From NCBI GenBank assembly GCA_020632235.1, contig JACKFY010000001.1:93602-157601 (forward strand): a DNA stretch of 64,000 bases. The letters run 5' to 3'. Each line of letters opens with the position of its first letter. Within the stretch, counting starts at the first letter, position 1. Positions 269-26,490 of this stretch are shown here, piece after piece. A model generated the notes under the pieces. The model searched no databases. It saw nothing but the letters and a program-made list of their open reading frames with translations, and had not been told where the DNA came from. The stretch is from Pseudomonadales bacterium. Lineage in GTDB: Bacteria > Patescibacteriota > Microgenomatia > UBA1400 > PJMF01. The position numbers and the translations under genes were made by a program.

Positions 269-414
269 GGTAAGTGTCGCGCGGTGAGAATCCCATCGCC
301 TCCGCAACAATCGAAAAGTTCTGATAGACCCGTCTAATACCCTCAAATGGATTGATGGGGCTTGCTAAATTTCCTCATTTTCAACATATTTCAGTTTTAC
401 AGCCGAGTAAGTGC
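269..414 (+). repeat. tRNA-3'-end-like repeat element, copy 1 (degenerate T-arm plus acceptor-3'-strand mimic ...CCTCCGCAA, then about 110 nt conserved tail)
   Basis: About 85% identical over about 110 nt to 26380-26490 and to the reverse complement of 21390-21500. Contains GCGGTGAGAATCCCATCGCCTCCGCAA, which resembles the tRNA-Ser T-arm plus 3' acceptor strand. Confidence 0.6.
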
Positions 415-472
415 TGATTTTTGTAGTTATATCACTCTAGTTAATGACTATTATTTCTCATATACTGACAAC

Positions 473-985
473 ATGAATCAAAGCTATACAACATTATTCC
501 TTTGGATTGGAATCCTTTTATTAGCTAGTTTAGCTATTTATCTTTATAAACTTTTTGCTAAGAAATCAGGTTTTAAGTATAAATCAAAAGGGCCTTTCTT
601 ATTGAGTAAAGGAGAAAAGGCGTTCTTTGATATTCTGATTCAATCGATTTCTCCCGATTTATACATTTGCCCCAAGGTAAGAGTGGCAGACTTAATTGAA
701 GTTGACTTACTTAAAAGTGATAAAAAATTTTGGGCATCTTTTAACAAAATTTCGAAAAAGCATGTCGATTTTGTGTTATGCAATCGTACTGATTTCGCTC
801 CAGTCTTAGTAATCGAGCTAGATGGTGAAAGTCATAAAGTCAGTTCACGATCTCAACGAGATACTTTTGTTGATAATGCTTTTTCTCAAGCGAATATCAA
901 AATTTTACACATAACGACTCAAAGTATGTATGATGTCAATCAATTACAAAATCAAATTGCTGGTACTGTAACTATTCAAGAGTAG
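473..985 (+). CDS. DUF2726-like protein (NERD / PD-(D/E)xK-like putative nuclease fold) with N-terminal TM helix
   Basis: ORF 362..985 in the track. The likely true start is the ATG at 473 (MNQSYTTLFLW...), because 362-472 overlaps the conserved repeat. Motif VDFVLCNR...VLVIELDGESHK is typical of DUF2726. A paralog lies at 33962..34426. Confidence 0.55.
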   Translation: MNQSYTTLFLWIGILLLASLAIYLYKLFAKKSGFKYKSKGPFLLSKGEKAFFDILIQSISPDLYICPKVRVADLIEVDLLKSDKKFWASFNKISKKHVDFVLCNRTDFAPVLVIELDGESHKVSSRSQRDTFVDNAFSQANIKILHITTQSMYDVNQLQNQIAGTVTIQE

Positions 986-1051
986 TTTTGACCCGCTCCC
1001 CTTATAGTTGACACTAATTGTAATTAAAATAGCTGTCAGAAAGGGGGCAAA

Positions 1052-1375
1052 GTGGCAGGAATTTCTAAAGATATTAAGGCCGAAATCATAGCCAAGGTAA
1101 AGGCAGGGCAAAAAGTGGCGGATTTAGCCAAGGCGTATGGAATTAGCACTAAAACCATCTATAACTGGCTGCGAGGTCAAGTAAAAGAGCAGGTGTCTTG
1201 GCGGGAATACAAACGGGTAATGAAGGAAAACCAACAACTTAAGCAAATACTTGGAGTTCTCACACTCGAACTAGAGAAGTTAAAAAAAAGAACAGAAACT
1301 AGTACATTACTTTTGGAAGCACTGCCACATCTGGATAAAACTCTCTTGGCGGATGCTCTTGGTATTTCTAGGTAG
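1052..1375 (+). CDS. IS3-family transposase OrfA (HTH DNA-binding, leucine zipper)
   Basis: 107 aa, typical IS3 OrfA (KAEIIAKVKAGQKVADLAKAYGISTKTIYNW). Ends with TAG at 1373-1375. Confidence 0.85.
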   Translation: MAGISKDIKAEIIAKVKAGQKVADLAKAYGISTKTIYNWLRGQVKEQVSWREYKRVMKENQQLKQILGVLTLELEKLKKRTETSTLLLEALPHLDKTLLADALGISR

Positions 1376-2155
1376 TGGTTGTACAAAACAGATTTTATTC
1401 AGGTAGAAAAAGACAAGCAGTTAAAGCAACAAATTGAGGAGGTGTAGAGTTCTCACCAGAGCAAAGCCAGTTATGGCTACCGCAGGTTAGCAATTGAACT
1501 AGGAGTTGGTAAGAAGCGAATTCGCAGATGTATGAAGAAATATGGCTTGAGGCCATACAAAAGAAAAGCCAGATGGCGAAAAAGAAGAGATGAACAAAGA
1601 AAGCCAGTAGCTTTTGCAAACGAGATTAAAAACCAGTGTCCACTAGTACCCAACCACACTTGGGCTGGAGATTTTACATACTTGCCATTTAAGGGCAAGT
1701 TTATCTACCTAGCTACTTTCATGGATATTTTTACCAGAGAGATAGTGGCTTGGCAAATATCCGATAGACATGACAAAACATTGGTTATGCAAGCCTTTTT
1801 AGATGGCTTAGTTAACCGAGACTTCCAGAAACCAATATACATCCACTCTGACCAAGGAGCAGAATATTGTTCCCAAGATTACACTGACTTAGTGAAGAAT
1901 TTTGGGGTTACAATTTCCATGAGTACCAAGGCTTCTCCCTGGGAAAATGGTTACCAAGAATCCTTTTACAACAACTTTAAAACTGACTTAGGCCTTGAGT
2001 TTGACCGCTTCGACGATGAAGGGCACTTTCTGGAAGCAATACACCACACCCTTTAGAGCTACAACCATGAAAGAATTCACTCTGCCTTGAAAATGCCACC
2101 CTCCAGATTCCATGCCAAGTATTTACAATCCGTGTCTACGAAAAGGGGCGCTTGA
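1376..2155 (+). CDS. IS3-family transposase OrfB (HTH_21 plus rve DDE integrase core), in the same frame as OrfA and interrupted by in-frame TAG codons at 1445-1447 and 2057-2059
   Basis: Frame 2 continues directly after the OrfA TAG. The sequence WLYKTDFIQVEKDKQLKQQIEEV(TAG)SSHQSKASYGYRRLAIELG... matches the conserved IS3 OrfB N-terminus. The DDE core (HSDQGAEY...) lies in track ORF 1532..2056. The C-terminus (SYNHERIHSALK...) follows the third TAG. Confidence 0.6.
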
Positions 2156-2329
2156 CAAGTACTAGTGCTTTCTTTCATTTATTTCTTTTGAAGAGCTTTT
2201 CTGATCATTAGTATAAAAATAGCCGACATAGTGATACTTAAAACTGTGTAAAATAGTATTGTGAGGAGTAAATATATTGACATGATGTAAGTATAGCATA
2301 ATCAAAAATTTCAAGTGTGTTGATATTGA

Positions 2330-2905
2330 CATATAATTCTAATGACGCCACTCCCGCGGACTAAAGTCCGGGGTATCGGCGGTAGCCTTGCAGGCTAGAG
2401 ATACTGGAGCTATTGATTCTTGATGTAGTCTTTTATTACTTGCTCGTTTACTTGTCCTACACTTTCGGCAAAATAGCCATCACACCATAGATTGTTAGAC
2501 CACTCAAATGCTTGAGAGTCTGGGTACTCTTGTTTGATCTTTCTACTGGTTCCACCCTTGAGTATTTGTACAACCTGAGCTACTGACTCTCTTGGCTTGA
2601 TTTGTATCAGAAGGTGGATGTGATCTTCTTGGATGGTTAGCTCTTCTATCCACCACTTATTAATACCACAAGCTTCATAGAACAACTCCTGCAGTCTATT
2701 GGCTATGTTGCCTAGCAAGACTTTCTTGCGCCTCTTTGGTATCCATACTAGGTGGAATCTAAGACGGTGCTTGGTGTGAGAGCCTGTCCAGTATCTTCGT
2801 GCCATAGCTCCAGTATCTCATACTAACCTGATTCGCCATGCTGGCTAGCGCCTACCTGGCTCACAGGTACAAGGCACGATTCATTCCCGGGCTAAAGCCC
2901 GGGGT
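2330..2905 (-). mobile_element. IS200/IS605-family element (TnpA only) with subterminal hairpins
   Basis: Hairpins CCCGCGGACTAAAGTCCGGGG (about 2352-2372) and CCCGGGCTAAAGCCCGGG (about 2887-2905) flank the tnpA ORF. Boundaries are approximate. Confidence 0.55.
2410..2805 (-). CDS. tnpA: IS200/IS605 family transposase TnpA (Y1 HUH)
   Basis: 131 aa with the HUH motif (HIHLLIQIKP) and the conserved Y1 region. Typical size. Confidence 0.85.
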   Translation of the reverse strand: MARRYWTGSHTKHRLRFHLVWIPKRRKKVLLGNIANRLQELFYEACGINKWWIEELTIQEDHIHLLIQIKPRESVAQVVQILKGGTSRKIKQEYPDSQAFEWSNNLWCDGYFAESVGQVNEQVIKDYIKNQ

Positions 2906-2972
2906 ATTCTCGAAGGGGGTATAAGTGTAAACTATAGGTCTACTCAATCATGGAAGTAAGGTTATCCCGAAT

Positions 2973-4039
2973 TCAATTTGGAAATGCACCACTTTGGTCT
3001 AAGACCTTTCTGTAGTGATTAAACTTGTACTTGTTAACTTCTCTCGCCATTGCCTCATTTGGTGTTAGATGGTTCAGACATTTAAGCGGAGCGTTGTTAA
3101 TCCAATTCTCAACTTGCTGGAGATACACTTCACTAACGGTGGTGAGGTCTGTCCCTTTAGGAATAAATCTCCTCACTCTTCCAATCATGTTTTCAACAGA
3201 TCCTTTTTTCCCAAGAATGGTAGGGATAACACACATAACCCTTTGTGCATGTTTTTAGCTAGTTCTTGATGCTGCGTATTCTCAGAGCCATTATCATAGG
3301 TCATTGACTTAATTATGGGATCTCTTGACTTACTCACAGATTGTATCTTTTTTAATGTTTTTTGCATACTTTTTTGCTTGGTTGCAGCTTTCTTATTCTC
3401 AAGCTTTTCAAGTTTGATAAATCTTGTTTTTCTCTCGATATGAGCTGAAACGCTCGCACCTATGCCTCTTGGAGATTCCATCAGATCTGTTTCCCGGTGC
3501 CCGGCTTGCTTGCGGTTGTTTGCCTTTGTGGGGCGATGTTCTATTGACTCCACTCCTTTTATTTTAGATGCTTTTTTAGTCTCAGCACCTGTTTTCTTTG
3601 GTTTTCGTTTCTTGTGACCTCGAACCAAGTAGTGCCACAGCGTATCTCTTCTTCCCAAACCATAGATGTATTGGTAGATGGTTTCATAGCTGATACTTTC
3701 ACCTGGATGATCAATGGGTAATCTTCCCGCTATTTGTTCTGGCGTCCACTTTATCCTTAGTTTCTCTCTTACATACAAAAATACTGCTGGATTTTTGAGT
3801 GGCGCCTGTTGGCGCTGCATCTTTGTCCTCTGTTTGGATAGTGTGTGTGCTTTAACTGGTTTGTATCCCTCATTGCTGAATGGCTTGGAGTTTCGAGACA
3901 GTTCTCGACTGACCACACTATGGTTGCGACCTATTTTTCTTCCAATCCTACGAATTGAGAAGCCTTGTTCCTTTAATTTGTATATTTCCACCCGCTCCTC
4001 TAGAGACAAGTGTGTTCCTTTTTTATGTCCACTTTTCAT
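2973..4039 (-). pseudogene. IS30-family transposase, split into two overlapping ORFs (frameshift near 3185-3236)
   Basis: The N-terminal ORF 3185..4039 has an HTH and the start of the DDE domain (HRETDLM...TYDNGSE). The C-terminal ORF 2973..3236 (LNNAPLKCLNHLTPNEAM) is the IS30 C-terminus in another frame. Confidence 0.7.
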
Positions 4040-4331
4040 CTGCTGATTTTACCAAAGTGGTGCGTTTCGTTTCTGAAGACGGGGCTAGCTTTCCTGAAAA
4101 CTCTGCTGCATGCTTTGAAGTCTTTTTAAGACGTCATTTGAAAAGTAATTCCTTACAGCTTATCGCCATTATTGCAGGCACTCACCAAGAAAGTCGCTCT
4201 CCATATCTAGAGTTTAAATATATTTTGCCTAAGGACAATAAAGAGGCTGAGTAGATAAAAATGTTTCACAAAGAGTTTAGTGAGTATGGAAACTCTGACA
4301 GTAGTAGGTGCTCATACGTCACTTACTTGCG

Positions 4332-5537
4332 TTAGAAATCTAGAATGACAACTGCCTCGGCGTATGGGTCGTTGCTGTGTTTTTTTCCAGTGAACACATA
4401 TGCTGCAACTCTATCTCCCTCAGGACTCCAGCTATTGTCTCCCACTACTATCTTTTGTCTCATAAATTCTGGCGTTCTTCTCTGATTAAAGTAGGTGAGT
4501 CTTTCTTTACCTGTTCCGTCAGCATTCATTCTCCACATCTCAAGTTCGACTCTGCTCAGGTTGGTCAGATTCAAGCTAGTAGGGAGTGAGCTAGTACCAT
4601 CACTTGATACCCAAACCATAGTGTTACCCGCTGGGCTCAAGTGTGCATGCTCATCCCATTCTAAGTTTTCTGTAAGCTGTGTAACTTGTTGTGTTTGGGG
4701 GTCGTATACTCCTATCTCCATGTTTTCGTAGTAGCCATCTCGTGGGACGTAAGAGAATAGTATTGAGTCATTATTGATATAGCCGTGTGTTTCATACAGT
4801 TGGTGATTGTCAGGTTTTAAAACTTGAATAGTATTTAAGTTCACGGGGCCTGTTTGGCGATCTGTTGCCCTATGTAGTGATGCTGTTCTCATTTCCCACT
4901 CACCGGTTCTGCGCATACCTGTGTTCATGTTGTTTCCTGTCATGTGTGACCATAGTATGCCTGTGCCATCTTGATTAAACTTGGGGTGTAGCACACCTTC
5001 GTAATTCCCTACTTCTGTCACCTGCCATCTTTGCTGCCCATCAATGGTCATGATCCAGATGTTGTTATTGAGACCTACTCCAGGAGAAGTAGCGTACTGA
5101 CCAGCAGTGCTAGGCAAGTTGGTGCCAATCGGATTTAGATTCCTATCTTCTTCTTGGTACAAAATGTAGCTGCCCGTGGGGTCTACAGCAGGGTTGCCAA
5201 TATGGTAATCATTTTCTGTTCTAAACGAACAACTAATGCATGTTTCATTTGACCCATCAGGATTCATCCAGTAAATATCGTAGTATCCTTCAGCATTTTT
5301 TTTGTCAAAGTAAATGCGGTTGTTGGCTTTTGACCAGTCAACTCTACCTCCACCATTTGCAATAACAGTATACGATTTTACTTTTTTTCCTGGAAAAACA
5401 GAGCCTTTCATGAGTGAGGCATCACCGCCCTCTCTCCTCCAGCCTTCTGAGCGTATGTCGTGTTGCTGGTAGAGAACTGACCCCACAATGACAACTAACG
5501 AAAAAAGTAATAGTCCGGTAATAAGGGCTTTGTTCAT
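4332..5537 (-). CDS. Secreted or anchored PD40/TolB-like beta-propeller repeat protein
   Basis: N-terminal TM/signal sequence. Repeats of the D-I-Y-W-M-N-P-D-G-S type (PD40-like). 401 aa. Confidence 0.45.
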   Translation of the reverse strand: MNKALITGLLLFSLVVIVGSVLYQQHDIRSEGWRREGGDASLMKGSVFPGKKVKSYTVIANGGGRVDWSKANNRIYFDKKNAEGYYDIYWMNPDGSNETCISCSFRTENDYHIGNPAVDPTGSYILYQEEDRNLNPIGTNLPSTAGQYATSPGVGLNNNIWIMTIDGQQRWQVTEVGNYEGVLHPKFNQDGTGILWSHMTGNNMNTGMRRTGEWEMRTASLHRATDRQTGPVNLNTIQVLKPDNHQLYETHGYINNDSILFSYVPRDGYYENMEIGVYDPQTQQVTQLTENLEWDEHAHLSPAGNTMVWVSSDGTSSLPTSLNLTNLSRVELEMWRMNADGTGKERLTYFNQRRTPEFMRQKIVVGDNSWSPEGDRVAAYVFTGKKHSNDPYAEAVVILDF

Positions 5538-5650
5538 ATGTTATTAGTATATAACAGTTTCAGAGTAATACAAAAGAAGATATCTACAACCAAGATAGTT
5601 TTTGCTTTCATATTCGTGACATACATGCTTTATTTTGGGTCTAGAGAACT

Positions 5651-6340
5651 TTAGAGCGGATTTTCTCTACACTCTTTGAGTAGTATTTGGTACATAGATG
5701 TTCTGTAGTTCCATCGAAACTCACCTTCCTTTAAGTGTAGATGAAACATAGTATCTGTGAGTCCATTAAACTTTGCAAGTCTTCTTTTTGTAAAGCTCCA
5801 GAATGACTCAATACCATTCACATGTGCTTTTCCTCTCACAAACTCATCGTGTGAGTGATACACACGATAGTGATCATAGCCATTAAGGATGAGACCATCA
5901 TAGGCCTTCCATCCATCAGAGTAGATCGTTGATCCTTCTAGCACCTTTCCTTGAATGATGGGGAGTAGCTGTGCTTTGGTGCAGTTCTTTACTATGTTGA
6001 CGTATACTTTTCCTTCTCGTTTTAAGATGCCAAAGACTGGTGTCTTGCCAGCAGCTCCTCTTCCTCTTTTTCCTCTCACTCGTTTTGCCCCAAAGTAGCT
6101 CTCATCAACTTCAAGCTCTCCTAGTTCTGGAGTATTGAGCACGCTCAGTTGTACCATTCTGAGTCGCAACTTGTAGTAAAGAGCATTAATGGAGTTGCGA
6201 CTAACGCCACTCATTTGTGCTGTCTTTGAGGCTGGTTGATCTGCACAAAAGTACCGTAAAATTTCTCGAAACTTAGTCTCTGAAATGTGTGCTCTATAGA
6301 GATACTTGTTTTTCATAGATCTAGCAACGTATTTTAACAC
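5651..6340 (-). CDS. IS1595-family (ISXO2-like) DDE transposase
   Basis: Contains ELEVDESYFGAKRVRGKRGRGAAGKTPVFGILKREGKVY...IYSDGWKAY...HVNGIESFWSFTKRRL, the hallmark ISXO2-like transposase domain. Confidence 0.8.
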   Translation of the reverse strand: MLKYVARSMKNKYLYRAHISETKFREILRYFCADQPASKTAQMSGVSRNSINALYYKLRLRMVQLSVLNTPELGELEVDESYFGAKRVRGKRGRGAAGKTPVFGILKREGKVYVNIVKNCTKAQLLPIIQGKVLEGSTIYSDGWKAYDGLILNGYDHYRVYHSHDEFVRGKAHVNGIESFWSFTKRRLAKFNGLTDTMFHLHLKEGEFRWNYRTSMYQILLKECRENPL

Positions 6341-6589
6341 TTATTGAGTGTTAAAGTTGTCTAGACCCTTGTGTTTAGTGCTTTTCTTATGGTTTTGTCA
6401 CTGGTGGAGAGCATGGCAGAGTACATTATTACCAGTATAAACAAAATTTGGTTTCCAAGCTATACAGTTTCTGTCACAAATGCCAACTGTGGCTGCAAAT
6501 CAGGTATATGGATGTAGCCTGGAGTATTTTGTATAATAGTTCTAAGATCATTCACGATGTCCCGCTGAGTTAAAACGAAGCGGTAAAGA

Positions 6590-6668
6590 TAGGATGAGAA
6601 GTAAGATCCCGTCTGAGTTGTGCTCGAAGAGCAGAATGACAGCGGGAAATCCCACACCCTCCGCCATT
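6590..6668 (+). repeat. Diverged copy of the tRNA-3'-end-like repeat (GGATGAGAAGTAAGATCC...GCGGGAAATCCCACACCCTCCGCCA)
   Basis: Shares the GGATGAGAAGTA..AG.CC 5' block and the T-arm-like plus CTCCGCCA 3' block with 26330-26376. A further fragment (CACACCCTCCGCAA) lies at 7203-7216. Confidence 0.45.
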
Positions 6669-6678
6669 TCTCTAAATC

Positions 6679-7191
6679 ATGGGTTTGATTGAGAAAGGTT
6701 ATGTCCATATATTTGACGGGTCTATTGCTGTTGATTCTGGTGACGATGCGATTAAGGCTATTACCAGCCTTACCGTTGATGGAGGTGTAATTACTGTTAC
6801 CAATAGTGTTGAAGGCATGGAGGCGACAAATATCACCATCAATGACGGAGAGATTACCATCGCTGCAATTGATGACGGCATCAATGCCGTGAGTCAGGGT
6901 TTGGGCGGTGAGGTGTTTATCACTGTTACTGGCGGTAGTGTTAACGTCACTGTAGGCACTGGTGACACCGACGGCTTTGATAGCAATGGTTCTATCACCA
7001 TCTCGGGCGGTACTGTAGACGTGACTGCTCCAGGCATGTCTTCTCTTGATTATGAAACTACTGGCCAGCTAACAGGTGGTACACTGATTGTAAATGGACA
7101 AGAGCTGACCCAAATGCCCGCCTCTATGACGGGTGGACCAGCTGGAGGCGCTGCTGGTAGAGCTGGCGGATTTGACCCCAGCGTGCGCTAG
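6679..7191 (+). CDS. Gly/Thr/Val-rich parallel beta-helix-like repeat protein fragment (probably a remnant of a larger surface protein)
   Basis: 170 aa of repetitive G-T-V-N-G-S-I-T-I motifs with no convincing N-terminus. Bounded by repeat fragments on both sides (6590-6668 and 7203-7216). Confidence 0.35.
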   Translation: MGLIEKGYVHIFDGSIAVDSGDDAIKAITSLTVDGGVITVTNSVEGMEATNITINDGEITIAAIDDGINAVSQGLGGEVFITVTGGSVNVTVGTGDTDGFDSNGSITISGGTVDVTAPGMSSLDYETTGQLTGGTLIVNGQELTQMPASMTGGPAGGAAGRAGGFDPSVR

Positions 7192-7201
7192 ATTGTTTCA
7201 T

Positions 7202-7555
7202 TTACCCACACCCTCCGCAAATCCCAAAGAGTGTCGTGTGATGATGGTTGACACGAAACGAGCCAACAGCGTGCGGCTCTTGATAAGCACACTCTCCTTC
7301 TTCGATACTCCCACACTGGGTACACACCAGGTGGGCGTGGTGATGCTCTCGTAGCTCGTAGGTGGCCTCTGTGGGGGAGAAATGATGACGGCAGATTACG
7401 TCTTCATCAAGTAATTGCTCTAATGCCCGATACACACTGGTTTTGTTATACGATGTCTTATTTTTTTCTAGCAGCGTCAGAATGTCAGACACCGAGAGTA
7501 AGTGGTGTGTTTGTAGCAGTTTTACGAGTGTCTCTTTGAGGGTGCGTTGTTGCAT
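7202..7555 (-). CDS. Fur-family metalloregulator (likely Zur, given the divergent ZIP transporter)
   Basis: 117 aa with HHHAHLVCTQCG and a C-terminal CGGCG. Has the Fur-family winged-helix plus metal-site architecture. Confidence 0.8.
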   Translation of the reverse strand: MQQRTLKETLVKLLQTHHLLSVSDILTLLEKNKTSYNKTSVYRALEQLLDEDVICRHHFSPTEATYELREHHHAHLVCTQCGSIEEGECAYQEPHAVGSFRVNHHHTTLFGICGGCG

Positions 7556-7587
7556 GATTCTGCGATTTAGTATACTCTACGAGCATT

Positions 7588-7610
7588 ATAATGCAACTGG
7601 GTTGCATTAT
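7588..7610. promoter_or_regulatory. Perfect 10-3-10 palindrome ATAATGCAAC-TGG-GTTGCATTAT in the zur/ZIP divergent intergenic region (candidate Zur/Fur box)
   Basis: Read directly from the sequence. Overlaps the track-called ATG of the ZIP ORF at 7591. Confidence 0.55.
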
Positions 7611-7638
7611 TGACCCAAAGCAGCTATACTACTTTGAT

Positions 7639-8514: not shown

Positions 8515-8610
8515 TTGTTAGCTCAATTATTGTTGAACAGCCAGAGCTTTCTTCAGGTGCTATTGCGACTGCTATCGTGCAGTACTTGGACAACCGAGAC
8601 CTTTTAGGTT

Positions 8611-9002
8611 GAGTACCGCACAGCCCCCAATAAGCCAGATTCTGTTTTGATAGCAATCTATCTAATGCCCGCGTCTTTATCACCGGCTGGCACGAGTGCC
8701 AACTCGCGAGTGTGTGCAATGCGGTGAAGGTCGTCGGTTGCAGCGGGGAGGATTACCCCTCTCACCACGAGTGGTGAGAGGCCTCCTCTCGATTTCTCGA
8801 GGATCAAAGGCGTTTCACCTCCCTCACACGAATGTGAGGGAAATCGTCACTGTTGCTCTAACTGTCGTCCGATTATGACATCGGACGCTCCACCTTTCGA
8901 TGGACACCCTACACTCTGCTGTCCGGACTTTCCTCCCCTCACTTTACTGTCAAGGTCTGGCCTGGCGCGAAAGTGAGGGGCTGCTATCTGTGAGCTGTGC
9001 GG
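8611..9002 (-). ncRNA. rnpB: RNase P RNA (bacterial type A)
   Basis: The minus strand reads GAGGGGAGGAAAGTCCGGACAGCAGAGTGTAGGGTG... (P4/CR-I), ...GGGAGGTGAAACGCC... (CR-II-like) and ...ACAGAATCTGGCTTATTGGGGGCTGTGC (CR-V/P4 3' strand). The P1 stem is GCACAG...CTGTGC. Track ORFs 8369..8719, 8696..8878 and 8847..9089 are spurious. Confidence 0.85.
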
Positions 9003-9102
9003 CAGGTGTAGTATACCAAGCGTAGCTACAATTTCGCTATGAAGGTTGATTTTATTCGTTTTAATGCCAGTGATGAGGTAGAGCTCCAAGGATGGTTGAG
9101 TA

Positions 9103-9660: not shown

Positions 9661-9688
9661 AATTAATGAGTGTAATAAAGGATACATA

Positions 9689-12151: not shown

Positions 12152-12154
12152 AGT

Positions 12155-12890: not shown

Positions 12891-12947
12891 CAATATTTTT
12901 TGGATACGATATACTTTGGCATTACAGAAACGTAAAAAAGGGAAAAA

Positions 12948-14421: not shown

Positions 14422-14430
14422 AACTTCTTT

Positions 14431-14964: not shown

Positions 14965-14987
14965 AGGCAGACAGTATACTACGCCCT

Positions 14988-15854: not shown

Positions 15855-15856
15855 AG

Positions 15857-16963: not shown

Positions 16964-17055
16964 CTAGAGTGTGTGAATGCCTTCAGCAAACGTTCAGCTT
17001 TGGTTGGTAGAGTAGGCGCATAGTACAAAGCAAACTACACAAAAGAAAGGTAGCT

Positions 17056-17571: not shown

Positions 17572-17657
17572 CTAATACCCCATAGCTAGAGTACCCCCTC
17601 CGTTTTGTGTGCGAGTTAGCTCGAACAGAAGGGAGGGGGGTATACTACTACTTATAT

Positions 17658-18335: not shown

Positions 18336-18344
18336 TACAGAGCT

Positions 18345-19337: not shown

Positions 19338-19439
19338 GGGTTTGTTTGCGGAGCATGTGGGTGCAGAGTAATCCATTGGCATTCTATGCAATATTAAAAT
19401 AATACTTGAATTTTGCATAAATAAGTATATGATAGAATC

Positions 19440-20639
19440 ATGATCAAAAGAGATATCACTACTAGCATACACAAGCTCAAAACTCAATTTCCAGTACTCG
19501 CGGTAACAGGACCTCGTCAGTCAGGAAAAACAACATTGTTGAGAAAAATGTTTCCAGATTATGCGTATTACAATCTAGAAAATCCAGAAACGTTAGCAAA
19601 AGTAGAGCATGATACCGCTACGTTTATTAGAGAAAACCAAAACCGAGTCATTATTGATGAAGTCCAGCGGGTACCAAAACTTCTCTCATATATTCAAGTA
19701 ACAGTAGATGAAACCAAACAACTTGGAAGTTTTATTATTTCCGGATCAGCGAACTTATTACTGTCAGAAAAAATTGATCAGTCGCTTGCTGGTCGAGCTG
19801 CTTATATCACCTTGTACCCACTCTCAAATCAAGAATTAAAAGCAGAAAAATTGCTCAAACCTACTATGTATGACCAAATTTTTACCGGCTCATACCCTTT
19901 TCTCTACTCACATGATACAGAGACTGTTGGTTATTATAACCAATATATTGCAACGTATGCTGAACGAGATCTTAAAAATATCAGCAATATCATCAACTTG
20001 AGTCAATTTAGAAAGTTTTTTGCACTACTTGCTGGTAGAGTTGGGCAACTTGTCAACCTTACTACTTTGGCAAATGATACTGGTGTTTCCGTTACTACTA
20101 TCGAAAACTGGATCTCAATTCTTGAAGCAAGCTACTTAGTTTTTAGATTGCAACCTCACTTCAAAAATTTTGGTAAACGATACATCAAAAGTCCCAAAAT
20201 TTACTTTACTGACACAGGATTGGCCTGCCGATTACTAGGAATTCAATCTTCAGAGCAGCTCAAAACACATTACCTGCTGGGGGGGCTATTTGAAAATATG
20301 ATGATCATGGAAGTTACGAAATATTTCTCCAACTATGGTTTGCCAGGAAAACTATTTTTTTTCAGAGATAGTAATGGTCGGGAAATCGATTTAGTTATTG
20401 ATCAAGGACTTACGCAGGTACCGATTGAAATTAAATCGAGTGGAACGTTCAATCCAGATTTTTACAGTGGACTCAAGTACTGGCGTAGTCTTACAGAAAG
20501 TTCTCTAGAAACTACTACCAAGCATGGGTTTGTAATGTATGCAGGCGAGCAAACAAGTAGTGGAGATGAAAACTCACTTTTGACTTGGAATAATCTTGAC
20601 CCCCTATTTGCCTTAATAACGAAAACCAATAATGTATGA
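19440..20639 (+). CDS. AAA+ ATPase of the AAA_14/DUF4143 family
   Basis: Walker A GPRQSGKTT. DUF4143-like C-terminal region. 399 aa. Confidence 0.7.
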   Translation: MIKRDITTSIHKLKTQFPVLAVTGPRQSGKTTLLRKMFPDYAYYNLENPETLAKVEHDTATFIRENQNRVIIDEVQRVPKLLSYIQVTVDETKQLGSFIISGSANLLLSEKIDQSLAGRAAYITLYPLSNQELKAEKLLKPTMYDQIFTGSYPFLYSHDTETVGYYNQYIATYAERDLKNISNIINLSQFRKFFALLAGRVGQLVNLTTLANDTGVSVTTIENWISILEASYLVFRLQPHFKNFGKRYIKSPKIYFTDTGLACRLLGIQSSEQLKTHYLLGGLFENMMIMEVTKYFSNYGLPGKLFFFRDSNGREIDLVIDQGLTQVPIEIKSSGTFNPDFYSGLKYWRSLTESSLETTTKHGFVMYAGEQTSSGDENSLLTWNNLDPLFALITKTNNV

Positions 20640-21388
20640 ACTCACCCGATTTTACTCTCGATAAAATTAAGTTTGGCACAGATAAGCGAATGCTCCAAAA
20701 AGCGTTTGAGTTGTACGAAGGTGGTAAGGTAACGCAAGTAAAAGAAGGCGTTCGTTCCTACAGAGGAATTGTTATTGGTACCCAGCCGTACAACGTAAGT
20801 GTGGAAGCTCGTCGTTATGACTATGCTGATTGCACTTGCTACCTTGGAAAAAATGATGAGTTTTGCAAACACATGGTAGCTCTGGCTATTTATGTTGTCA
20901 AAAATGGCGAGCCACTCACTGATGAAGATAAAAAAATCTACCACAGTCCAACTTGTAGTGGAAAAATTGGTGAATTAGGTACGGATGAGTTAAGAGAAAT
21001 AAAAAAAACCATCAGCTACGGCATGCGATATATAAAGCCATATCATGGGCTATCAAGATTGTGGTTTTCTTATCAAAATTCGCTGGCGGAAGGTTGCAAT
21101 CGTTTGGCAAAAGTAGTCAGTGAATTGCCGGTCAGCAAACAAGCAGCTGACCTGTTGGTCAGTGTGATGCTGCGATTAGATAAAAAACTCACCAACGGCC
21201 GTGTGGATGATTCAGATGGGGTAGTGGGTGGATGTATTGAGGAACTCGTTGAGGTGACATTTGAATATGTAAAAATCGAACCAAAATGCCTTAAAGCGGT
21301 TGAAAAACTGCGCAACCAGAATACTTGTTTTGGTTGGGAAGAGCCTCTGGTTGGTTTGCTGGAAAGGAAGAACAATTCTTACACATAA
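20636..21388 (+). CDS. SWIM zinc-finger protein
   Basis: CTCYLGKNDEFCKH is a CxCx(n)CxH SWIM motif. Overlaps the ATPase stop by 4 nt (operonic). Confidence 0.6.
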   Translation: MNSPDFTLDKIKFGTDKRMLQKAFELYEGGKVTQVKEGVRSYRGIVIGTQPYNVSVEARRYDYADCTCYLGKNDEFCKHMVALAIYVVKNGEPLTDEDKKIYHSPTCSGKIGELGTDELREIKKTISYGMRYIKPYHGLSRLWFSYQNSLAEGCNRLAKVVSELPVSKQAADLLVSVMLRLDKKLTNGRVDDSDGVVGGCIEELVEVTFEYVKIEPKCLKAVEKLRNQNTCFGWEEPLVGLLERKNNSYT

Positions 21389-21389
21389 T

Positions 21390-21573
21390 TTTTGCGGTTG
21401 TTAAACAAAAAGGTATTGAAAATAAAAGAAATTTAGTAAGGGCAATCAACCCACTTGAGGATATTAGACTGGTCTACCAGAACTTTTTGATTGTTGCGGA
21501 AGCGGCGGGCTTTCCGCCAGCCGGCGGACTGTACTTCTCATCCCACCTTTCACGCTCATCACTTCGTTCTTGG
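21390..21573 (-). repeat. tRNA-3'-end-like repeat element, copy 2 (inverted), preceded by a hairpin ending ...GCCA
   Basis: The reverse complement is near-identical over the first about 95 nt (GCCAAGAACGAAGTGATGAGCGTGAAAGGTGGGATGAGAAGTACAGTCCGCCGGCTGGCGGAAAGCCCGCCGCTTCCGCAACAA) to 26303-26390, and about 80% identical over the tail. Confidence 0.7.
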
Positions 21574-21696
21574 CAGAGCACCTGGGTCTGGAACCCGTGC
21601 GTCGTTATAACTGTCCCATTCCAGAATCGAGCTTCCAGGGTAATTTTAGCAAAAACGGGACAAATGGGACACTATAAAAAGGGTGTGTCTTTTTTT

Positions 21697-22332
21697 CTAA
21701 CGATCCATTTTGATATATTTAACAAATTCCAAACCAAAAGGTGAAATTCTTACAAATGGAGAATTAGCAGGATGATAGCCACCCCTTGTTCCAGTTGTAT
21801 CAAAAAGTAAACCAAGGTTGACCAAATTATGGATATTTTCTTTTCGATCTGGATTATTACCGTAAATCTGATAATTTTGATCTTCATTTTTTGAAATATC
21901 GACATCTCTTAAAGTCAAAACATCTGTCTGACTGAGTTGGGAAAGTGTATGTGTGAATTTTTCTAATGGGAAGATTGCTTTATCGTTAGCTTGTGAAAAA
22001 CCTAAAAATATATTTCTGAAGATAGTCCTTTTTATCGTATTTCTTTCGGTTAGGTATTTTTCTAAAGCTATTACAAAACCATCTTGAAATGCCTCATCTC
22101 CCAACACTTGTTCAGAAAAATAGGAAGGATTATCTCTCACCATTTCTACCCATTCGAGCACTCGTTGCTGTCTTAATTTCATCCCAGCACCGTATAAGGC
22201 TTTACTTAACTTGTAGGGAATATTAATTAAAGGAATTGATTCCGCAATTGCATCAACAACTGAGTCTGCTGCAATCTCGATAAAATCGTTTACCAGGATT
22301 TTATCCTTTCGATTTATTTTAGGTTTTTTCAT
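21697..22332 (-). CDS. hypothetical protein (gene 2 of an overlapping two-gene module)
   Basis: 211 aa with no confident family. Overlaps the upstream gene by 14 nt. Confidence 0.4.
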   Translation of the reverse strand: MKKPKINRKDKILVNDFIEIAADSVVDAIAESIPLINIPYKLSKALYGAGMKLRQQRVLEWVEMVRDNPSYFSEQVLGDEAFQDGFVIALEKYLTERNTIKRTIFRNIFLGFSQANDKAIFPLEKFTHTLSQLSQTDVLTLRDVDISKNEDQNYQIYGNNPDRKENIHNLVNLGLLFDTTGTRGGYHPANSPFVRISPFGLEFVKYIKMDR

Positions 22333-22846
22333 TGTATTGAACTCCTAGCACTGATTTTCTTCCTCTTTTTACTATTACATTTCCTGGAATATTAGTTCGA
22401 GATAGTTCATGGCATATTGCACCAATGTTAATATCATAAGCTTCCAGTTTTGGCGCATAGGAAACCACTCGTGCAATAGTGTCAGGATGTCGGGAAATTT
22501 CTTGGATTGAGAATGCCCTTAACTCAGGGTTCATTGATAGTAATTTCGCTGATACCGCATTGTGGTTGACATCCAGATCCATTCCTAAATGGATAAGTAT
22601 CAAATACTTTGCTGGCAAGTAGAATTTACCTCCTACTTCACTTAACTTTTCTTCTAATGATTTATTGGGTAAACCCACCTTGTTTTTGCCATAGAATGTC
22701 ATTTCGATTGGCGCAATCTCCTGTGTATCTTCAGAAACTGGCCTCATTAAAAAAGCATCTGGGGAATCATCAATATTATTCATTTGTACGAAGGAAGAAT
22801 GTTCTTGCATAGAATAAAATGTTAGATTTTCCAACGTTGTGTGCAT
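22319..22846 (-). CDS. hypothetical protein (gene 1 of an overlapping two-gene module)
   Basis: 175 aa with no confident family. Confidence 0.4.
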   Translation of the reverse strand: MHTTLENLTFYSMQEHSSFVQMNNIDDSPDAFLMRPVSEDTQEIAPIEMTFYGKNKVGLPNKSLEEKLSEVGGKFYLPAKYLILIHLGMDLDVNHNAVSAKLLSMNPELRAFSIQEISRHPDTIARVVSYAPKLEAYDINIGAICHELSRTNIPGNVIVKRGRKSVLGVQYNEKT

Positions 22847-22862
22847 CTAAATCCCATAGAAT

Positions 22863-23726
22863 ATGGGGAGAAAGGCACACATGCTTCATACCTATACCCA
22901 ACACAAAAATGCTCGTTTGACACCACTTCGTCGTCGAGAGATGGTTGAGCGAGTCTTAAGAAAGGAGTTGTCTCAAGAACAGGCAGCTTCAGAGTATAAA
23001 GTGCATCGCAACACTGTTGCTAAGTGGATCAAGGACCATCAGGAGCAAGGAAACTGGTTGTGTTTGGATAAGAAATCAACTCCGGAAAAACATCGCTTCA
23101 CAAGTGGGATAAAATACATTGAGAAGCTGTCAGCAAAGATACGGCGGAAAGTAGAGCGAAAACGGATGTTATACAACCGAGAACACCTGGGAGAACTAGT
23201 ACATATTGACACCAAGAAAATGCCTTGGTTAAAGGGTGAAACAGCAGCAGATGGTAAAGAGTATCTGTATGTAGCCATAGATGACTGTTCAAGATGGGCA
23301 TATGCTGCCGTTATGCCAGACAAGACAGATGAATCTGCAGCTGCATTTCTTGATGAAGTTCTGACTATCTCACCAGTCCCTATTCAAGCTATCATGACCG
23401 ACAATGGTCGAGAATACAAAGGTAAACTTGATCGAGGTCATGCGTTTGAGTGTCTACTTGATGCAGAGCACATCAAACACATCTACACTCGAGTCAAAAG
23501 ACCACAAACCAACGGGAAAGCTGAACGTATGATCCGAACCATCATAATGTGGCACAAATCTATCAAGTTTCGCTCAAGGGAAGAAAGGAGCTACGCTCTG
23601 ACTGACTTTATTAGTTGGTACAACACCCAAAAAGCTCACTCGTCTCTCAAAAACCAGACGCCGTTTGACTTTATGGTTGACCACTACCAAAATTGTACTA
23701 ATTGCACACAACGTTTAGGAAACTAA
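22863..23726 (+). CDS. IS481-family-type DDE transposase (rve integrase core)
   Basis: Contains HIDTKKMPW...YLYVAIDDCSRW...TDNGREY...TNGKAERMIRT, the DDE triad context of IS481-like transposases. Confidence 0.75.
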   Translation: MGRKAHMLHTYTQHKNARLTPLRRREMVERVLRKELSQEQAASEYKVHRNTVAKWIKDHQEQGNWLCLDKKSTPEKHRFTSGIKYIEKLSAKIRRKVERKRMLYNREHLGELVHIDTKKMPWLKGETAADGKEYLYVAIDDCSRWAYAAVMPDKTDESAAAFLDEVLTISPVPIQAIMTDNGREYKGKLDRGHAFECLLDAEHIKHIYTRVKRPQTNGKAERMIRTIIMWHKSIKFRSREERSYALTDFISWYNTQKAHSSLKNQTPFDFMVDHYQNCTNCTQRLGN

Positions 23727-23772
23727 CACTTTAAGTAACAGAAAAATCCACTTAATAAAGTAAAATAAATAT

Positions 23773-24423
23773 GTGAGTAAAAAAAATGCTAAATGTCTAC
23801 TGAGAATAAAGATTAACAATTTTAATTTTCTGCAATTGAAGCTAATCAATAACAAAGATTTTATTTTTTCAATTCCAAAAACCAATGTTGCGAATCAGCA
23901 ACTGAACACGCATTTTACTTTGCATACAGAAACTGATGTTGTGACATGGAAAACAACATCATTTGTTAAAAATGGAAAAGATCTGATGAACGACATGCTC
24001 CAAAAGGTTGAAGAGTCTGATTATAAACATCTATCTGTCCCAGGTAAAAAAGAACTTAACATGTTGTATGGTAAAAAGTTTGATTTTTCTGACAGTAAAT
24101 TGTTAGTGAATCCTCATACAAATGTTTCTCTTAATTTAATAAATTCCTCTATGAGTAAGTTGTTTGTAAATAAATCAAAAACATCAGACATATCATCTGA
24201 TAAAGTAGTTAACTTTAATGTTCCTTCTGATAAAACAGGAATTACAATAAAATCATTTATTGGTAAGAACTTTAGTTCAAAAATATCAACTTATATTGAA
24301 GGGTGTGACGATTACTGTGAAATAAGTCATCAAAATCATAAGGGTGAGAACTATTATTTTTTATTTTTGATAAAGTATGAATTTCCAGAAGTAAAGACAA
24401 GTCCTAGCTCAATAGTGATATAA
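23773..24423 (+). CDS. Asn/Lys/Ser-rich low-complexity hypothetical protein (AT-rich, probably foreign)
   Basis: 216 aa of biased composition. Lies between an IS481-type transposase and tRNA-Ser. Confidence 0.3.
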   Translation: MSKKNAKCLLRIKINNFNFLQLKLINNKDFIFSIPKTNVANQQLNTHFTLHTETDVVTWKTTSFVKNGKDLMNDMLQKVEESDYKHLSVPGKKELNMLYGKKFDFSDSKLLVNPHTNVSLNLINSSMSKLFVNKSKTSDISSDKVVNFNVPSDKTGITIKSFIGKNFSSKISTYIEGCDDYCEISHQNHKGENYYFLFLIKYEFPEVKTSPSSIVI

Positions 24424-24579
24424 AGCTTAGAACCAACGACTTTTCCTTCTAAGCGTTTTTAGGCGATTTTCTAGCTTACAGGCCTATTTTGTTATCCTCA
24501 TCAATTATGTGGATAATTAAGCAAGTAGCATCAATCTATTTGATAGTAGGTGATGGGTCTTGGAGCAACCAAGGGTGTT

Positions 24580-24666
24580 TGGCGGAAGCGGCGGGATTCG
24601 AACCCGCGAACCGAAGAACGGTCACGCTTTCCAAGCGTGTGCAATTGGCCACTATGCGACGCTTCC
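24580..24666 (-). tRNA. tRNA-Ser (anticodon GGA), type II with long variable arm
   Basis: Minus strand: GGAAGCGTCGCATAGTGGCCAATTGCACACGCTTGGAAAGCGTGACCGTTCTTCGGTTCGCGGGTTCGAATCCCGCCGCTTCCGCCA. The anticodon loop is TTGGAAA. CCA is encoded. Confidence 0.85.
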
Positions 24667-24727
24667 TTTCTATTTACAACTTATGCTTCAATGTATCTCT
24701 TCCAATGCCTGATTTATAAAATGTTTC

Positions 24728-25258
24728 TTGTATCGACCACCATACCCGCTTCCTGTTGTTTCTAGACCAGATTGGTTGATTGTACTATACTACAGAGTAA
24801 TTATGGTGCTACTTACACTACTGTACTCGATTTCTCAGGTCATGGTAATCGTCGGCCTTCTGCTCATTCTTCTTGAACTATTTATTGGCATTGAGGCAGG
24901 GTTTGATCTTGTTTTAATTGGCAGTATTCTTATTATCAGTGGTTTTGCAGGCATAGCGTTTGATAGCTATCTGGTTAGCACTATTTTGGCTATTATTTTG
25001 AGTTTTTTGTACATTGTTTTTGGCAGGCGATTTGTCAAACAAAAGGTAGTTAGTTCCACTCATAGCACGAATGTTGACAAGTTGATTGGTGCCCGGGCAG
25101 TTGTGGTGCAAGATATTACTAAAAATAATCCTGGTAGGGTAAAACTAGAAGATGAAGAGTGGCGAGCTACAAGTGCAAAAACAGTATCGGTTGGTGAGGT
25201 AGTAGTAGTCGAGAGCATTTCTGGCGTGACGCTTGGAGTAGTACAAAAAGAGAAATAG
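24728..25258 (+). CDS. NfeD-family protein (short form, membrane plus C-terminal OB fold)
   Basis: TM helices followed by an NfeD beta-barrel (VVVQDITKNNPGRVKLEDEEWRATS). The true start is probably a later Met. Confidence 0.7.
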   Translation: MYRPPYPLPVVSRPDWLIVLYYRVIMVLLTLLYSISQVMVIVGLLLILLELFIGIEAGFDLVLIGSILIISGFAGIAFDSYLVSTILAIILSFLYIVFGRRFVKQKVVSSTHSTNVDKLIGARAVVVQDITKNNPGRVKLEDEEWRATSAKTVSVGEVVVVESISGVTLGVVQKEK

Positions 25259-25268
25259 AAAGACACAT

Positions 25269-26117
25269 ATGGTTACTTTCACTACAGTTATTTTGGGTAT
25301 TTTACTGCTTATTGGACTGTATGCATTAGTGCGTAGCGTTCGTATTATTCGCCAGTATGAAAAAGGTCTTATAGTGCGTCTGGGAAAGTACCACGCAACG
25401 GCAAACCCTGGTCTCACGTTACTCATGCCGTTTATCGATGATCTGATTCGCGTTGATATGCGTGAGCAAGTTATCAATGTGCTGCCACAATCGGTCATTA
25501 CTCAAGATAATGTGGTGGTAACAGTGGATGCGGTGATTTACTACAAAATTGTTGATCCAGTCAAGGCAGAGTTTGAGATAGAAAATTTTTCGCTGGCGGC
25601 CACTACACTGGCTCAGACAAATCTGCGCAATATTATTGGTGATAAACAGCTTGACGAAACACTGACTGCTCGTGACAGTATTAACGCTAGTTTGCGCACC
25701 ATTCTTGATGAGGCAACAAATGCTTGGGGCGTGAAGGTGACCAAGGTAGAACTACAAAAAATTGACCCGCCAGCAGGGATCATCGAGGCGATGTCCAAGC
25801 AGATGAAAGCAGAGCGAGAAAAGCGCGCCAACGTGTTGGAAGCACAAGGTTTGAGAGAAGCAGAAATCTTACGGGCAGAGGGTGAGGCAAAGGCTATTAC
25901 TTTGCGTGCTGACGCCGAGGCCTCGGCTGTGCAGATGGTAGCTGATGCTGCTGAAAAGTATTTTACTGATAGAGCGATGAAGCTCAAACAACTAGAGGTA
26001 TCACAGGTGGTTTTGGCCAGCAGTGGCACCAAGTTTGTCTTGCCAACGTCGGGCGAGCTAGTGAATGTGCTTAATCTTGATGGAGAGCAGTCCGTAGTGC
26101 CAGTCAAAAAGAAATAA
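25269..26117 (+). CDS. SPFH/band-7 (stomatin-like) protein
   Basis: SPFH domain (RIIRQYEKGLIVRLGKY...VTVDAVIYYKIVDP). Classic nfeD-stomatin operon. Confidence 0.85.
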   Translation: MVTFTTVILGILLLIGLYALVRSVRIIRQYEKGLIVRLGKYHATANPGLTLLMPFIDDLIRVDMREQVINVLPQSVITQDNVVVTVDAVIYYKIVDPVKAEFEIENFSLAATTLAQTNLRNIIGDKQLDETLTARDSINASLRTILDEATNAWGVKVTKVELQKIDPPAGIIEAMSKQMKAEREKRANVLEAQGLREAEILRAEGEAKAITLRADAEASAVQMVADAAEKYFTDRAMKLKQLEVSQVVLASSGTKFVLPTSGELVNVLNLDGEQSVVPVKKK

Positions 26118-26217
26118 CGCCCTTTTTGTTTCTTTTGTGATATACGACTACCATTGTGTATTTGAGTTGCTATAATCTCTTGCATAGCTTGAAGGAGTAA
26201 AAGACCAAGCAAAGAGT

Positions 26218-26306
26218 GGAAGCGTCGCATAGTGGCCAATTGCAACAGGTTGCTAACCTGTACCGGTTTTTCTGGTTCGCGGGTTCGAATCCCGCCGCTT
26301 CCGCCA
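26218..26306 (+). tRNA. tRNA-Ser (anticodon GCT), type II
   Basis: GGAAGCGTCGCATAGTGGCCAATTGCAACAGGTTGCTAACCTGTACCGGTTTTTCTGGTTCGCGGGTTCGAATCCCGCCGCTTCCGCCA. The acceptor and T arms are identical to the GGA isoacceptor. Confidence 0.85.
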
Positions 26307-26490
26307 AGAACGAAGTGATGAGCGTGAAAGGTGGGATGAGAAGTACAGTCCGCCGGCTGGCGGAAAGCCCGCCGCTTCCGCAACAATTGAAAAGTTCTGA
26401 TAGACCCGTCTAATACCGCAAAATGGGTTGACAGGGCTTGCTAAATTTCCTTGATTTCAACATTTTTCAGTTTAACAGCCGTGTAAGTGC
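26304..26490 (+). repeat. tRNA-3'-end-like repeat element, copy 3, directly abutting the CCA of tRNA-Ser(GCT)
   Basis: Contains GGCGGAAAGCCCGCCGCTTCCGCAA, which mimics the tRNA-Ser T-arm plus acceptor 3' strand GGGTTCGAATCCCGCCGCTTCCGCCA. The tail is conserved with copies 1 and 2. Confidence 0.7.

Follow-up and report, generated by a model that had tools for sequence, protein, structure and literature searches.

A repeat that occurs several times in a 64,000-nucleotide (nt) stretch of contig JACKFY010000001.1 (positions 93,602 to 157,601, the window hereafter; 43.8% guanine plus cytosine, G+C) very probably represents the recombination junctions of small integrative units that were inserted serially at the 3' ends of serine transfer RNA (tRNA-Ser) genes, directly after ...CCGC. 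The mover is most likely a large serine recombinase. On this reading a unit has as its left end a body of about 115 nt (AACAATCGAAAAGTTCTGATAGACC...) and as its right end a head of about 100 nt, whose last ~24 nt mimic tRNA-Ser in the T-loop, the T-stem and the 3' strand of the acceptor (GGT...AATCCC....CTCCGC). Autonomous units of 7-11 kb carry the recombinase gene with its 3' end toward the body and have head c as their right end; recombinase-less cassettes end in head b and very short units in head a, both presumably moved in trans. The recombinase would act on the junction sites with crossover within CCGC(A), such that one insertion would yield a tRNA-body junction (attL) and a head-native flank junction (attR), and repeated insertion would yield co-oriented arrays with internal head-body (attP-like) junctions. 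Given that the heads mimic the tRNA end, each insertion would regenerate a usable target, with attR resembling attB and attL resembling attP, and arrays could thereby keep growing.

The repeat was originally predicted, from the window alone, to derive from the 3' end of tRNA-Ser. Its three long copies are real and were recovered by blastn at 289-414(+), 21395-21577(-) and 26300-26490(+) (80-87% identity, E 1e-24 to 1e-59), with a stretch of ~150 nt in common in a three-way alignment. A profile built from 34 copies of the body places it at 294-421(+) (E 6e-38), 21381-21507(-) (E 6e-28) and 26370-26497(+) (E 2e-38), and a fourth, diverged copy, new to this analysis, lies at 24463-24593(-), immediately 3' of a tRNA-Ser(GGA) gene (profile E 8e-14; blastn E 2.5e-4). 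Likewise, the third copy does begin at the CCA of the tRNA-Ser(GCT) gene at 26218-26306, and a hairpin ending in GCCA does precede the second. The tRNA derivation itself stands only for a pseudo T-loop/acceptor strand of ~24 nt; the ~115-nt body that follows (AACAATCGAAAAGTTCTG...) is not tRNA-derived and is element DNA. The likeness of the short part to a T-arm and acceptor strand is nonetheless above chance, as a weight matrix made from the 24 nt preceding 32 bodies of other genomes scores 30.4 bits at 305(+), 18.1 at 6664(+), 17.3 at 21496(-) and 17.3 at 26381(+), and the best match exceeded 17 bits in one of 30 shuffled windows. In heads b and c this part is the element's own mimic of a tRNA end and not a displaced fragment of a tRNA.

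An exact-pattern scan with AAGTTCTGNTAGACCNGTCTAATA, using one genome per species, yielded 35 loci (cited below by L numbers), all of them in metagenome-assembled genomes (MAGs) titled Woesebacteria, Pacebacteria, Patescibacteria or 'uncultured Pseudomonadales'. The predicted association with tRNA genes extends to these loci: the body directly follows a tRNA-Ser that ARAGORN finds intact in 19 of the 35 (anticodons GCT, CGA, GGA, TGA and ACT); a further locus has it behind a tRNA-Ser(GGA) that is truncated where the locus stops. Many metagenome loci also have the body at the ...CCGC of a tRNA-Ser, and in the window tRNA and body meet at 24580 (copy 4) and, with a short head-a unit between them, at 26306. 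A tRNA gene followed by a body reads ...CCGCAACAAT in place of ...CCGCCA. Where a tRNA-Ser gene of the same loci lacks the body, ...CCGC(A) leads into an intrinsic terminator; the body is consequently an insertion, joined to the tRNA gene at the tRNA's final nucleotides. A crossover inside the T-loop was considered and discarded, since the 3' strands of T-stem and acceptor at attL differ by isoacceptor and each is complementary to the 5' strand of its own tRNA; the junction is therefore not further inside the tRNA. The body has blocks conserved across species with 29-51% G+C, among them GGGCTTGCTAAAT and TTTAACAGCC in its distal part, and a sharp 3' boundary (...ACAGCC(G)TGTAAG) beyond which sequences differ and a -10-like box often comes next. 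Two loci from different MAGs, L025 behind a tRNA-Ser(GCT) and L033 behind a tRNA-Ser(ACT), share 59% identity up to the junction and 98-100% over the ~1200 nt beyond it, a breakpoint that marks a unit as having moved from one tRNA-Ser gene to another.

To judge by these record titles, the hosts, that of the window included, are probably uncultured candidate-phyla-radiation bacteria. Titles of 'uncultured Pseudomonadales' are carried by L001, L002, L005-L011, L018-L020, L024, L025, L027, L028, L031-L033 and L035, with relatives titled Woesebacteria, Pacebacteria or Patescibacteria, and are probably wrong bin assignments.

In 11 of the 35 loci the body is preceded not by a tRNA gene but by head a, b or c, each of which ends in a tRNA-Ser-like T-loop/acceptor strand. 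Head a precedes the body in L003, L006, L012, L030 and window copies 2 and 3; head b in L011, L019, L020, L031 and window copy 1; and head c in L007, L015 and L017, as well as forming the hairpin ahead of window copy 2. Head c-body junctions (L007, L015, L017, L003) are attP-like, and those of L007, L015 and L017 could reflect tandem or circular forms; head c-native flank junctions (L081, L083, L033 and window position 21574) are attR-like. Two tandem GTCCCATTT motifs are present in head c, together with a TGTACAAT box that is extended -10-like and directed at the recombination core (window 21632-21700(-), L007, L015, L017, L081, L083). Given that the attR junction of L081 falls ~9 nt ahead of the start codon of the host dnaG, the head c end may supply a promoter for the displaced gene. 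Head a begins with GGGATGAGAAG and contains a hairpin, CCAAGT...ACCTGG, with compensatory changes, as well as GCGAG repeats (window 6575-6668; L003 245-340; L006 51-166 and 5551-5657; L012 975-1170; L035 105-227); its fold z is -3.76 at window 6575-6668 and -2.2 in L003. In other genomes it lies just past the intrinsic terminator of a native tRNA-Ser and ends in a copy of that tRNA's 3' end (26/26 nt in L006). Candidate identities for head a are a gene for a small RNA, a secondary target site and the terminus of mini-units; enlargement of its profile found only five members, too few for covariation analysis. An ARAGORN 'transfer-messenger RNA (tmRNA)' at L016 5005-5314 is a false positive, consisting of two adjacent tRNA-Ser genes with a head-a-type spacer.

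What the DNA downstream of the bodies has in common is a gene of ~1.25 kb that encodes, on the opposite strand, a protein of 415-440 amino acids (aa). The L020 protein matches the Pfam families Resolvase (PF00239, 9e-21), Recombinase (PF07508, 2e-16) and Zn_ribbon_recom (PF13408, 2e-7) and is thus a large serine recombinase, one only remotely like those with solved structures (best PDB match SPbeta SprA/YokA, E 1e-6). The gene lies 0.4-4 kb downstream of the body and convergent with the tRNA in 11-13 of the 35 loci, and terminase-like and ParB-methylase genes often follow it. A second search, started from the recombinase protein and independent of the repeat, produced 34 contigs in IMG/VR and more than 548 relatives in metagenomes, 80 of which were kept. 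Among relatives of at least 54% identity with at least 1 kb of flank, 18 of 25 loci have a convergent tRNA, which is a tRNA-Ser in 16 (nearest convergent tRNA counted). Over all loci examined, 82 tRNAs within 5 kb are on the 3' side of the recombinase gene versus 1 on its 5' side. In six minimal loci (L078, L079, L082, L083, L085, L097), 79-114 nt separate the body from the point where the alignment of the recombinase gene ends; in minimal elements the body is the sole sequence between tRNA and recombinase gene, and it diverges along with the recombinase. The type of tRNA varies with recombinase clade: distant relatives (45-52% identity; L037-L069, L106-L149) are likewise convergent with their neighbouring tRNA, which is tRNA-Gln, Trp, Arg, Asn or Glu, a tRNA-Asp is less than 1 kb from a relative in L053, and L097, a close relative beside tRNA-Trp, retains the distal body. 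The whole clade appears to be tRNA-targeting, with target switches. One further contig, L039, has tandem recombinases. C-terminal remnants that break at codons 377-381 (window, L012, L020) were considered as an intragenic att site; this was dismissed, the cause in the window and L012 being insertion of an IS3-family insertion sequence (IS).

Two complete elements define the autonomous form. L081 (6.8 kb) reads tRNA-Ser(TGA), body, recombinase, membrane protein, Fic-like protein, primase-helicase-like protein and head c (...GGTCCCAGACCCACATGCTCCGC), followed directly by the host dnaG; the membrane, Fic-like and primase-helicase-like proteins were identified by eye, without a domain search. L083 (10.9 kb) includes terminase-like and ParB-methylase genes and likewise ends with head c against the native flank. 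Since both end in it, head c is the right end (P arm) of recombinase-bearing elements. The recombinase-less cassettes are smaller, at 0.9-4 kb with 1-4 accessory genes running from body to head b, and stand in co-oriented arrays. Such body-cargo-head b units share the orientation of the tRNA in L005, L011, L019, L025, L027, L029 and L031. In L005 the tRNA is followed by a body, one gene and head b, then a body, four genes and head b, then a body, one gene and the recombinase; L011, L019, L025 and L031 have similar arrays, L027 is a single unit ending with head b at the native flank, and L029 also has that junction. Where a locus has extra body copies, they point the same way as the anchoring tRNA in 8 of 8 cases (p ~0.004 under random orientation). 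One ABC-exporter cassette recurs at ~90% identity in at least three different contexts, and the cargo is accessory: methyltransferase; HIT, HAD and alpha/beta hydrolases; LD-carboxypeptidase; flavodoxin; cupin; GNAT acetyltransferase; DUF2726; Ham1; and GDPD. The shared core at most junctions is only ...CTCCGC, longer direct repeats occurring in some (20-26 nt in L006), and at attP ~100 nt are conserved on each side of this short core. By tRNA abutment, recombinase linkage, complete elements and a sharp breakpoint at the tRNA end in other genomes, the serial integrase-mediated insertion at tRNA-Ser that was first proposed for the window is supported.

Other explanations have been weighed against this one. 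The att sites might be genuine while the enzyme is, for example, a tyrosine integrase encoded elsewhere, the serine recombinase being a passenger or an invertase/resolvase. Tyrosine integrases classically target tRNA 3' ends, and large serine recombinases do so rarely (PMC7192596); long conserved arms of ~100 nt per side are also more like tyrosine-integrase attP arms, and some of the direct repeats are long (the 20-26 nt of L006). This reading is nonetheless unlikely, given that no tyrosine integrase was recognised in the two complete elements or in the recurrent gene clusters near the repeats (not every open reading frame, ORF, was Pfam-scanned), that only ...CTCCGC is common to most junctions, that tRNA type follows recombinase clade, and that the recombinase stop codon is 79-114 nt from the body in minimal elements, which fits a cohesive int-att module. 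Very little credence can be given to a miniature inverted-repeat transposable element (MITE)-like, non-autonomous transposon made of head plus body and spread by IS transposases, with an incidental link to tRNA-Ser. The window is rich in IS elements, and head plus body is short and multi-copy, but head b plus body has no terminal inverted repeats, and head and body are separable exactly after ...CCGC, as tRNA-body and head-native flank junctions show. The uniform orientation of extra copies with the anchoring tRNA (8/8) is likewise at odds with such a transposon, as is the fact that IS families vary by locus while the recurrent neighbour is the serine recombinase.

The original prediction had itself offered a structured RNA co-transcribed with the tRNA as an alternative, and a structured non-coding RNA in the form of a tRNA-Ser 3' trailer freed by tRNA processing would suit a repeat that comes immediately after highly expressed tRNA genes and has blocks conserved across species from 29 to 51% G+C. 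The head-a module also folds well (z = -3.76 at 6575-6668; -2.2 in L003). For the body, however, no such support was found: RNAalifold on 34 bodies gives -2.15 kcal/mol with a compensatory change in only 2 of 9 pairs, the fold z of the three window bodies is 0.0, +0.1 and -0.5 (+1.3 for the minus strand of copy 3), and Rfam has no family for body or heads at the gathering threshold or at E<=10. Further, many body copies follow non-tRNA heads, many tRNA-Ser genes have no body, and a trailer RNA would leave the linkage to a recombinase gene unexplained; a trailer is thus highly improbable. Hardly any weight at all attaches to the view that the body is a native, conserved tRNA-Ser flank, duplicated by gene duplication or conversion, beyond which mobile elements insert. 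A sharp 3' boundary, often followed by a -10-like box, is what this view has in its favour, but the same genomes contain body-less tRNA-Ser genes with their own terminators, bodies occur behind non-tRNA heads as well, and L025 and L033 have body and cargo that are 98-100% identical behind different tRNAs. In minimal elements, moreover, the body alone separates tRNA from recombinase gene and diverges with the recombinase.

Several narrower identities for the repeat were tried and set aside. A coding reading of the body was rejected by eye on both strands for stop codons and non-periodic variation (e.g., TAA/TAG in L010). A group II intron end, a piece of tmRNA, signal recognition particle RNA and a T-box leader, considered for body or head a, were unsupported by Rfam or motif comparison. 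A promoter/terminator scan of copy 3 found no consensus within the body.

Serial insertion by the serine recombinase nevertheless has to accommodate a number of observations that weigh against it. Neither an isogenic empty site nor an excised circle was found, a look-up via the Band_7 protein of the window giving only 1.7-kb contigs. The exact body pattern has no match in IMG/VR, and only one viral contig (L036) carries a body, by profile. Large serine recombinases normally need an attP of only ~50 bp, and the function of the ~115 + 100 nt conserved here is unexplained; the native right half-site (B') lacks conservation, an uncommon trait in this enzyme family. Most recombinase-less arrays are in 8-kb loci with no recombinase in view, and another enzyme is possible there. 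Finally, head a stands beside native tRNA terminators without a body in L006 and L016 and may be a feature of the host and not the end of an element. A broader proposition is offered tentatively, as possible but doubtful: that in these genome-reduced bacteria this recombinase clade runs a tRNA-anchored system of cassette capture, which may be the chief supplier of their flexible genes. Every unit, with a recombinase or with only one to four accessory genes, would have a conserved left end and a tRNA-mimicking right end, and each insertion would recreate a target-like site at the head-native flank junction and a donor-like one at the tRNA-body junction. If so, arrays could grow, shuffle and shed cassettes without the usual attB/attP/attL/attR asymmetry, and the system would be a functional analogue of the integron built on a different enzyme family.

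Integrons proper have the tyrosine recombinase IntI, folded single-stranded attC sites and a common promoter, and cis-mobilizable elements (CIMEs) of streptococci are deletion derivatives of conjugative elements. CIME accretion with integrative and conjugative elements and integron arrays share with the present units the recombinase-less members in one orientation beside a fixed chromosomal site, mobilised by a recombinase encoded nearby; none of these distinguishing features (IntI, a folded attC, a common promoter, derivation from conjugative elements) was found in the units here. An integron was also rejected as a direct identification, the recurrent recombinase being of the serine type, head b plus body having no inverted repeats and the body no fold signal. 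Staphylococcal cassette chromosome (SCC) elements (SCCmec, the arginine catabolic mobile element ACME, pseudo-SCC) are moved by the Ccr large serine recombinases into the 3' end of rlmH/orfX. Like the units here, they are cassettes at the 3' end of a conserved housekeeping gene that form tandem composite islands with repeated att-type sequences and include recombinase-less members, moved in trans in SCC and presumably also here; they differ in having the protein-coding target rlmH/orfX rather than a tRNA, in their unrelated sequences and in their much larger size.

In behaviour the closest described system, compared by description only, is that of the tycheposons. In tycheposons and the tRNA-anchored islands of Prochlorococcus, as here, small cargo-carrying integrative elements of streamlined genomes insert at the 3' part of a few tRNA genes, successive insertions displace older elements outward, partial tRNAs and fragmented integrases lie scattered, and the cargo is of accessory metabolism. 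A tyrosine recombinase is present in 910 of 937 tycheposon elements (Hackl et al., bioRxiv 10.1101/2020.12.28.424599), and tRNA-Ser(TGA) is among their labelled examples (bioRxiv 10.1101/2020.12.28.424599). The hallmark gene set of tycheposons is mostly a tyrosine recombinase with replication genes, and L081 does have its primase-helicase-like protein, identified by eye. Unlike tycheposons, the present units have a large serine recombinase as their recurrent enzyme, a shared long left end, tRNA-mimicking right ends and many cassettes of 1-4 genes without a mobility gene, and their hosts are apparently candidate-phyla-radiation bacteria rather than cyanobacteria. Tyrosine-integrase tRNA islands and prophages of the Islander/TIGER type are similarly bounded by an intact tRNA and, opposite it, a tRNA-like fragment, with the integrase near one end and the target left functional. 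In contrast to these classical islands, the recurrent enzyme here is of the serine type, the shared core is ~6 nt, and the junction falls at the last tRNA nucleotides, such that the T-stem/acceptor strand at attL is the tRNA's own. Mageeney et al. (PMC7192596) found tRNA or tmRNA (t(m)RNA) targets for 44.5% of tyrosine-integrase but 4.9% (14/297) of large-serine-integrase elements, and stated in 2020 that t(m)RNA use by a large serine integrase 'has not been reported previously' (PMC7192596). The large survey of large serine recombinases by Durrant et al. nowhere mentions tRNA, and literature searches returned no description of such a system in Patescibacteria.

What is unusual here is the type of enzyme and the cassette-like modularity. 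Serial integration at tRNA genes is in itself known, and is textbook for tyrosine integrases. Beyond it, what appears to be an entire recombinase clade at tRNA genes, with more than 548 metagenome relatives, comes into view. Candidate-phyla-radiation bacteria, with their small genomes, are thought to have few routes of gene flux, and the modular cassette form provides a testable mechanism for it. The enzymes might also attract genome engineers, their sites being short and defined and located where sequence is universally conserved. Within the window the gain is one of annotation, with island junctions located and cargo told from core genes, as follows.

200..305, plus strand: head b, the right end of the recombinase-less cassette to its left; ends in a pseudo tRNA-Ser 3' end, CGGTGAGAATCCCATCGCCTCCGC
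306..421, plus strand: body copy 1, the left end of the next unit (blastn and profile, E 6e-38)
473..985, plus strand: DUF2726 cargo gene (Pfam), belonging to the unit that starts with body 1
6575..6664, plus strand: head a-type structured module, a pseudo tRNA end and then CCA (18.1 bits; RNA fold z = -3.76)
7205..7218, plus strand: 14-nt direct repeat (CCCACACCCTCCGC) of 6651-6664 (sequence)
8615-8999, minus strand: RNase P RNA (rnpB), bacterial class A (116 bits)
21381..21495, minus strand: body copy 2 (blastn and profile, E 6e-28)
21496..21573, minus strand: short head-a unit (CA-AGAACGAAG...GGCGGAAAGCCCGCCGCTTCCGC), 100% identical to 26304-26381
21574..21700, minus strand: head c, the right end of an element of serine-recombinase type; bounds the unit that starts at tRNA-Ser(GGA)
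24463..24579, minus strand: body copy 4, diverged, directly 3' of tRNA-Ser(GGA)
24580..24666, minus strand: tRNA-Ser(GGA), anchor of the leftward array
26218..26306, plus strand: tRNA-Ser(GCT), anchor of the rightward array
26307..26381, plus strand: short head-a unit, ending in a 14-nt copy (CCCGCCGCTTCCGC) of the tRNA-Ser(GCT) 3' end
26382..26497, plus strand: body copy 3 (blastn and profile, E 2e-38)
30662..30754, minus strand: large serine recombinase remnant, C-terminal 31 aa (tblastn, 84% identity to aa 377-407, E 2.4e-11)
30754..31851, minus strand: IS3-family element that truncates the recombinase gene

These features do not form the single island from 269 to 26490, filled mostly with IS elements and cargo, that was originally envisaged. 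There are rather at least three separate arrays, and the segment between copies 1 and 2 contains core genes, including argS, RNase P RNA, Fur, a ZIP transporter and a two-component system. Nor is the window devoid of an integrase gene, as had been stated, since the 31-aa remnant at 30662-30754(-) is that of the serine recombinase; it is oriented toward body 3, as in intact elements. The partial copies fared unevenly. That at 6575-6668 is a true relative of the head part only (GGATGAGAAG...pseudo T-arm...CCTCCGCCA), a pseudo tRNA end followed by CCA and no body; that at 7205-7218 is a 14-nt direct repeat; and that at 31921-31950 is weak, resembling only the 5' motif of the 6590 copy (~17/18 nt).

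Of the third array only the inner part is present, at the left edge of the window. It opens with head b, which is 80-83% identical to head b of L005, L011, L019, L025, L027 and L029 and with body 1 forms an attP-like junction. The DUF2726 gene comes next, in a body-DUF2726 unit that is 93.5% identical in L002, where it lies behind an intact tRNA-Ser(CGA), and then four IS elements with a 401-aa ORF and the head-a-type junction with its CCA at 6664, which is an attR-type junction and the probable right boundary of this left-hand island. To the right of 6664 the 14-nt repeats (6651-6664 and 7205-7218) flank a Cthe_2159 beta-helix remnant (Pfam), and Fur, ZIP, rnpB, argS, NUDIX and the two-component system follow; the RNase P RNA, located between the left-hand island and argS, marks this stretch as core genome.

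The leftward array comprises tRNA-Ser(GGA), body 4, four ORFs including an IS481-like transposase, head c, the short head-a unit, body 2, and SWIM and AAA_14/DUF4143 genes. Its head c is homologous to that of L007, L015, L017, L033 and L003 and meets CAAGAACG at 21574; a weight-matrix scan of the window recognised no right end for this array. The rightward array comprises tRNA-Ser(GCT), the short head-a unit, body 3, a rve fragment, Ham1, GDPD and racemase genes, the recombinase remnant and IS3. All three arrays are decayed by IS elements (IS3, IS200, IS30-like, IS1595 and IS481-like types in the window), the recombinase being reduced to 31 codons. From the CCA to ...CCGCAACAAT, positions 26304-26387(+) and 21573-21490(-) are identical at 84/84 nt, and the bodies that follow agree at 78 of 112 alignment columns (70%); on this alignment the pair is a mosaic whose boundary coincides with the presumed crossover. 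The identical 84 nt in divergent tRNA-Ser arrays point to recent copying or exchange between the arrays, and the 77-nt unit was judged too small for movement as a circle. A second DUF2726 gene, with no recognisable body ahead of it, lies at 33962-34426(+), ~3 kb past the recombinase remnant. Finally, partial copies of the IS3-family element, 99% identical and inverted, are found at 1415-2157(+) and 30749-31491(-), ~29 kb apart and each within an array; they may have brought about an inversion of the DNA between them, a possible reason for copy 1 facing away from both tRNA anchors.

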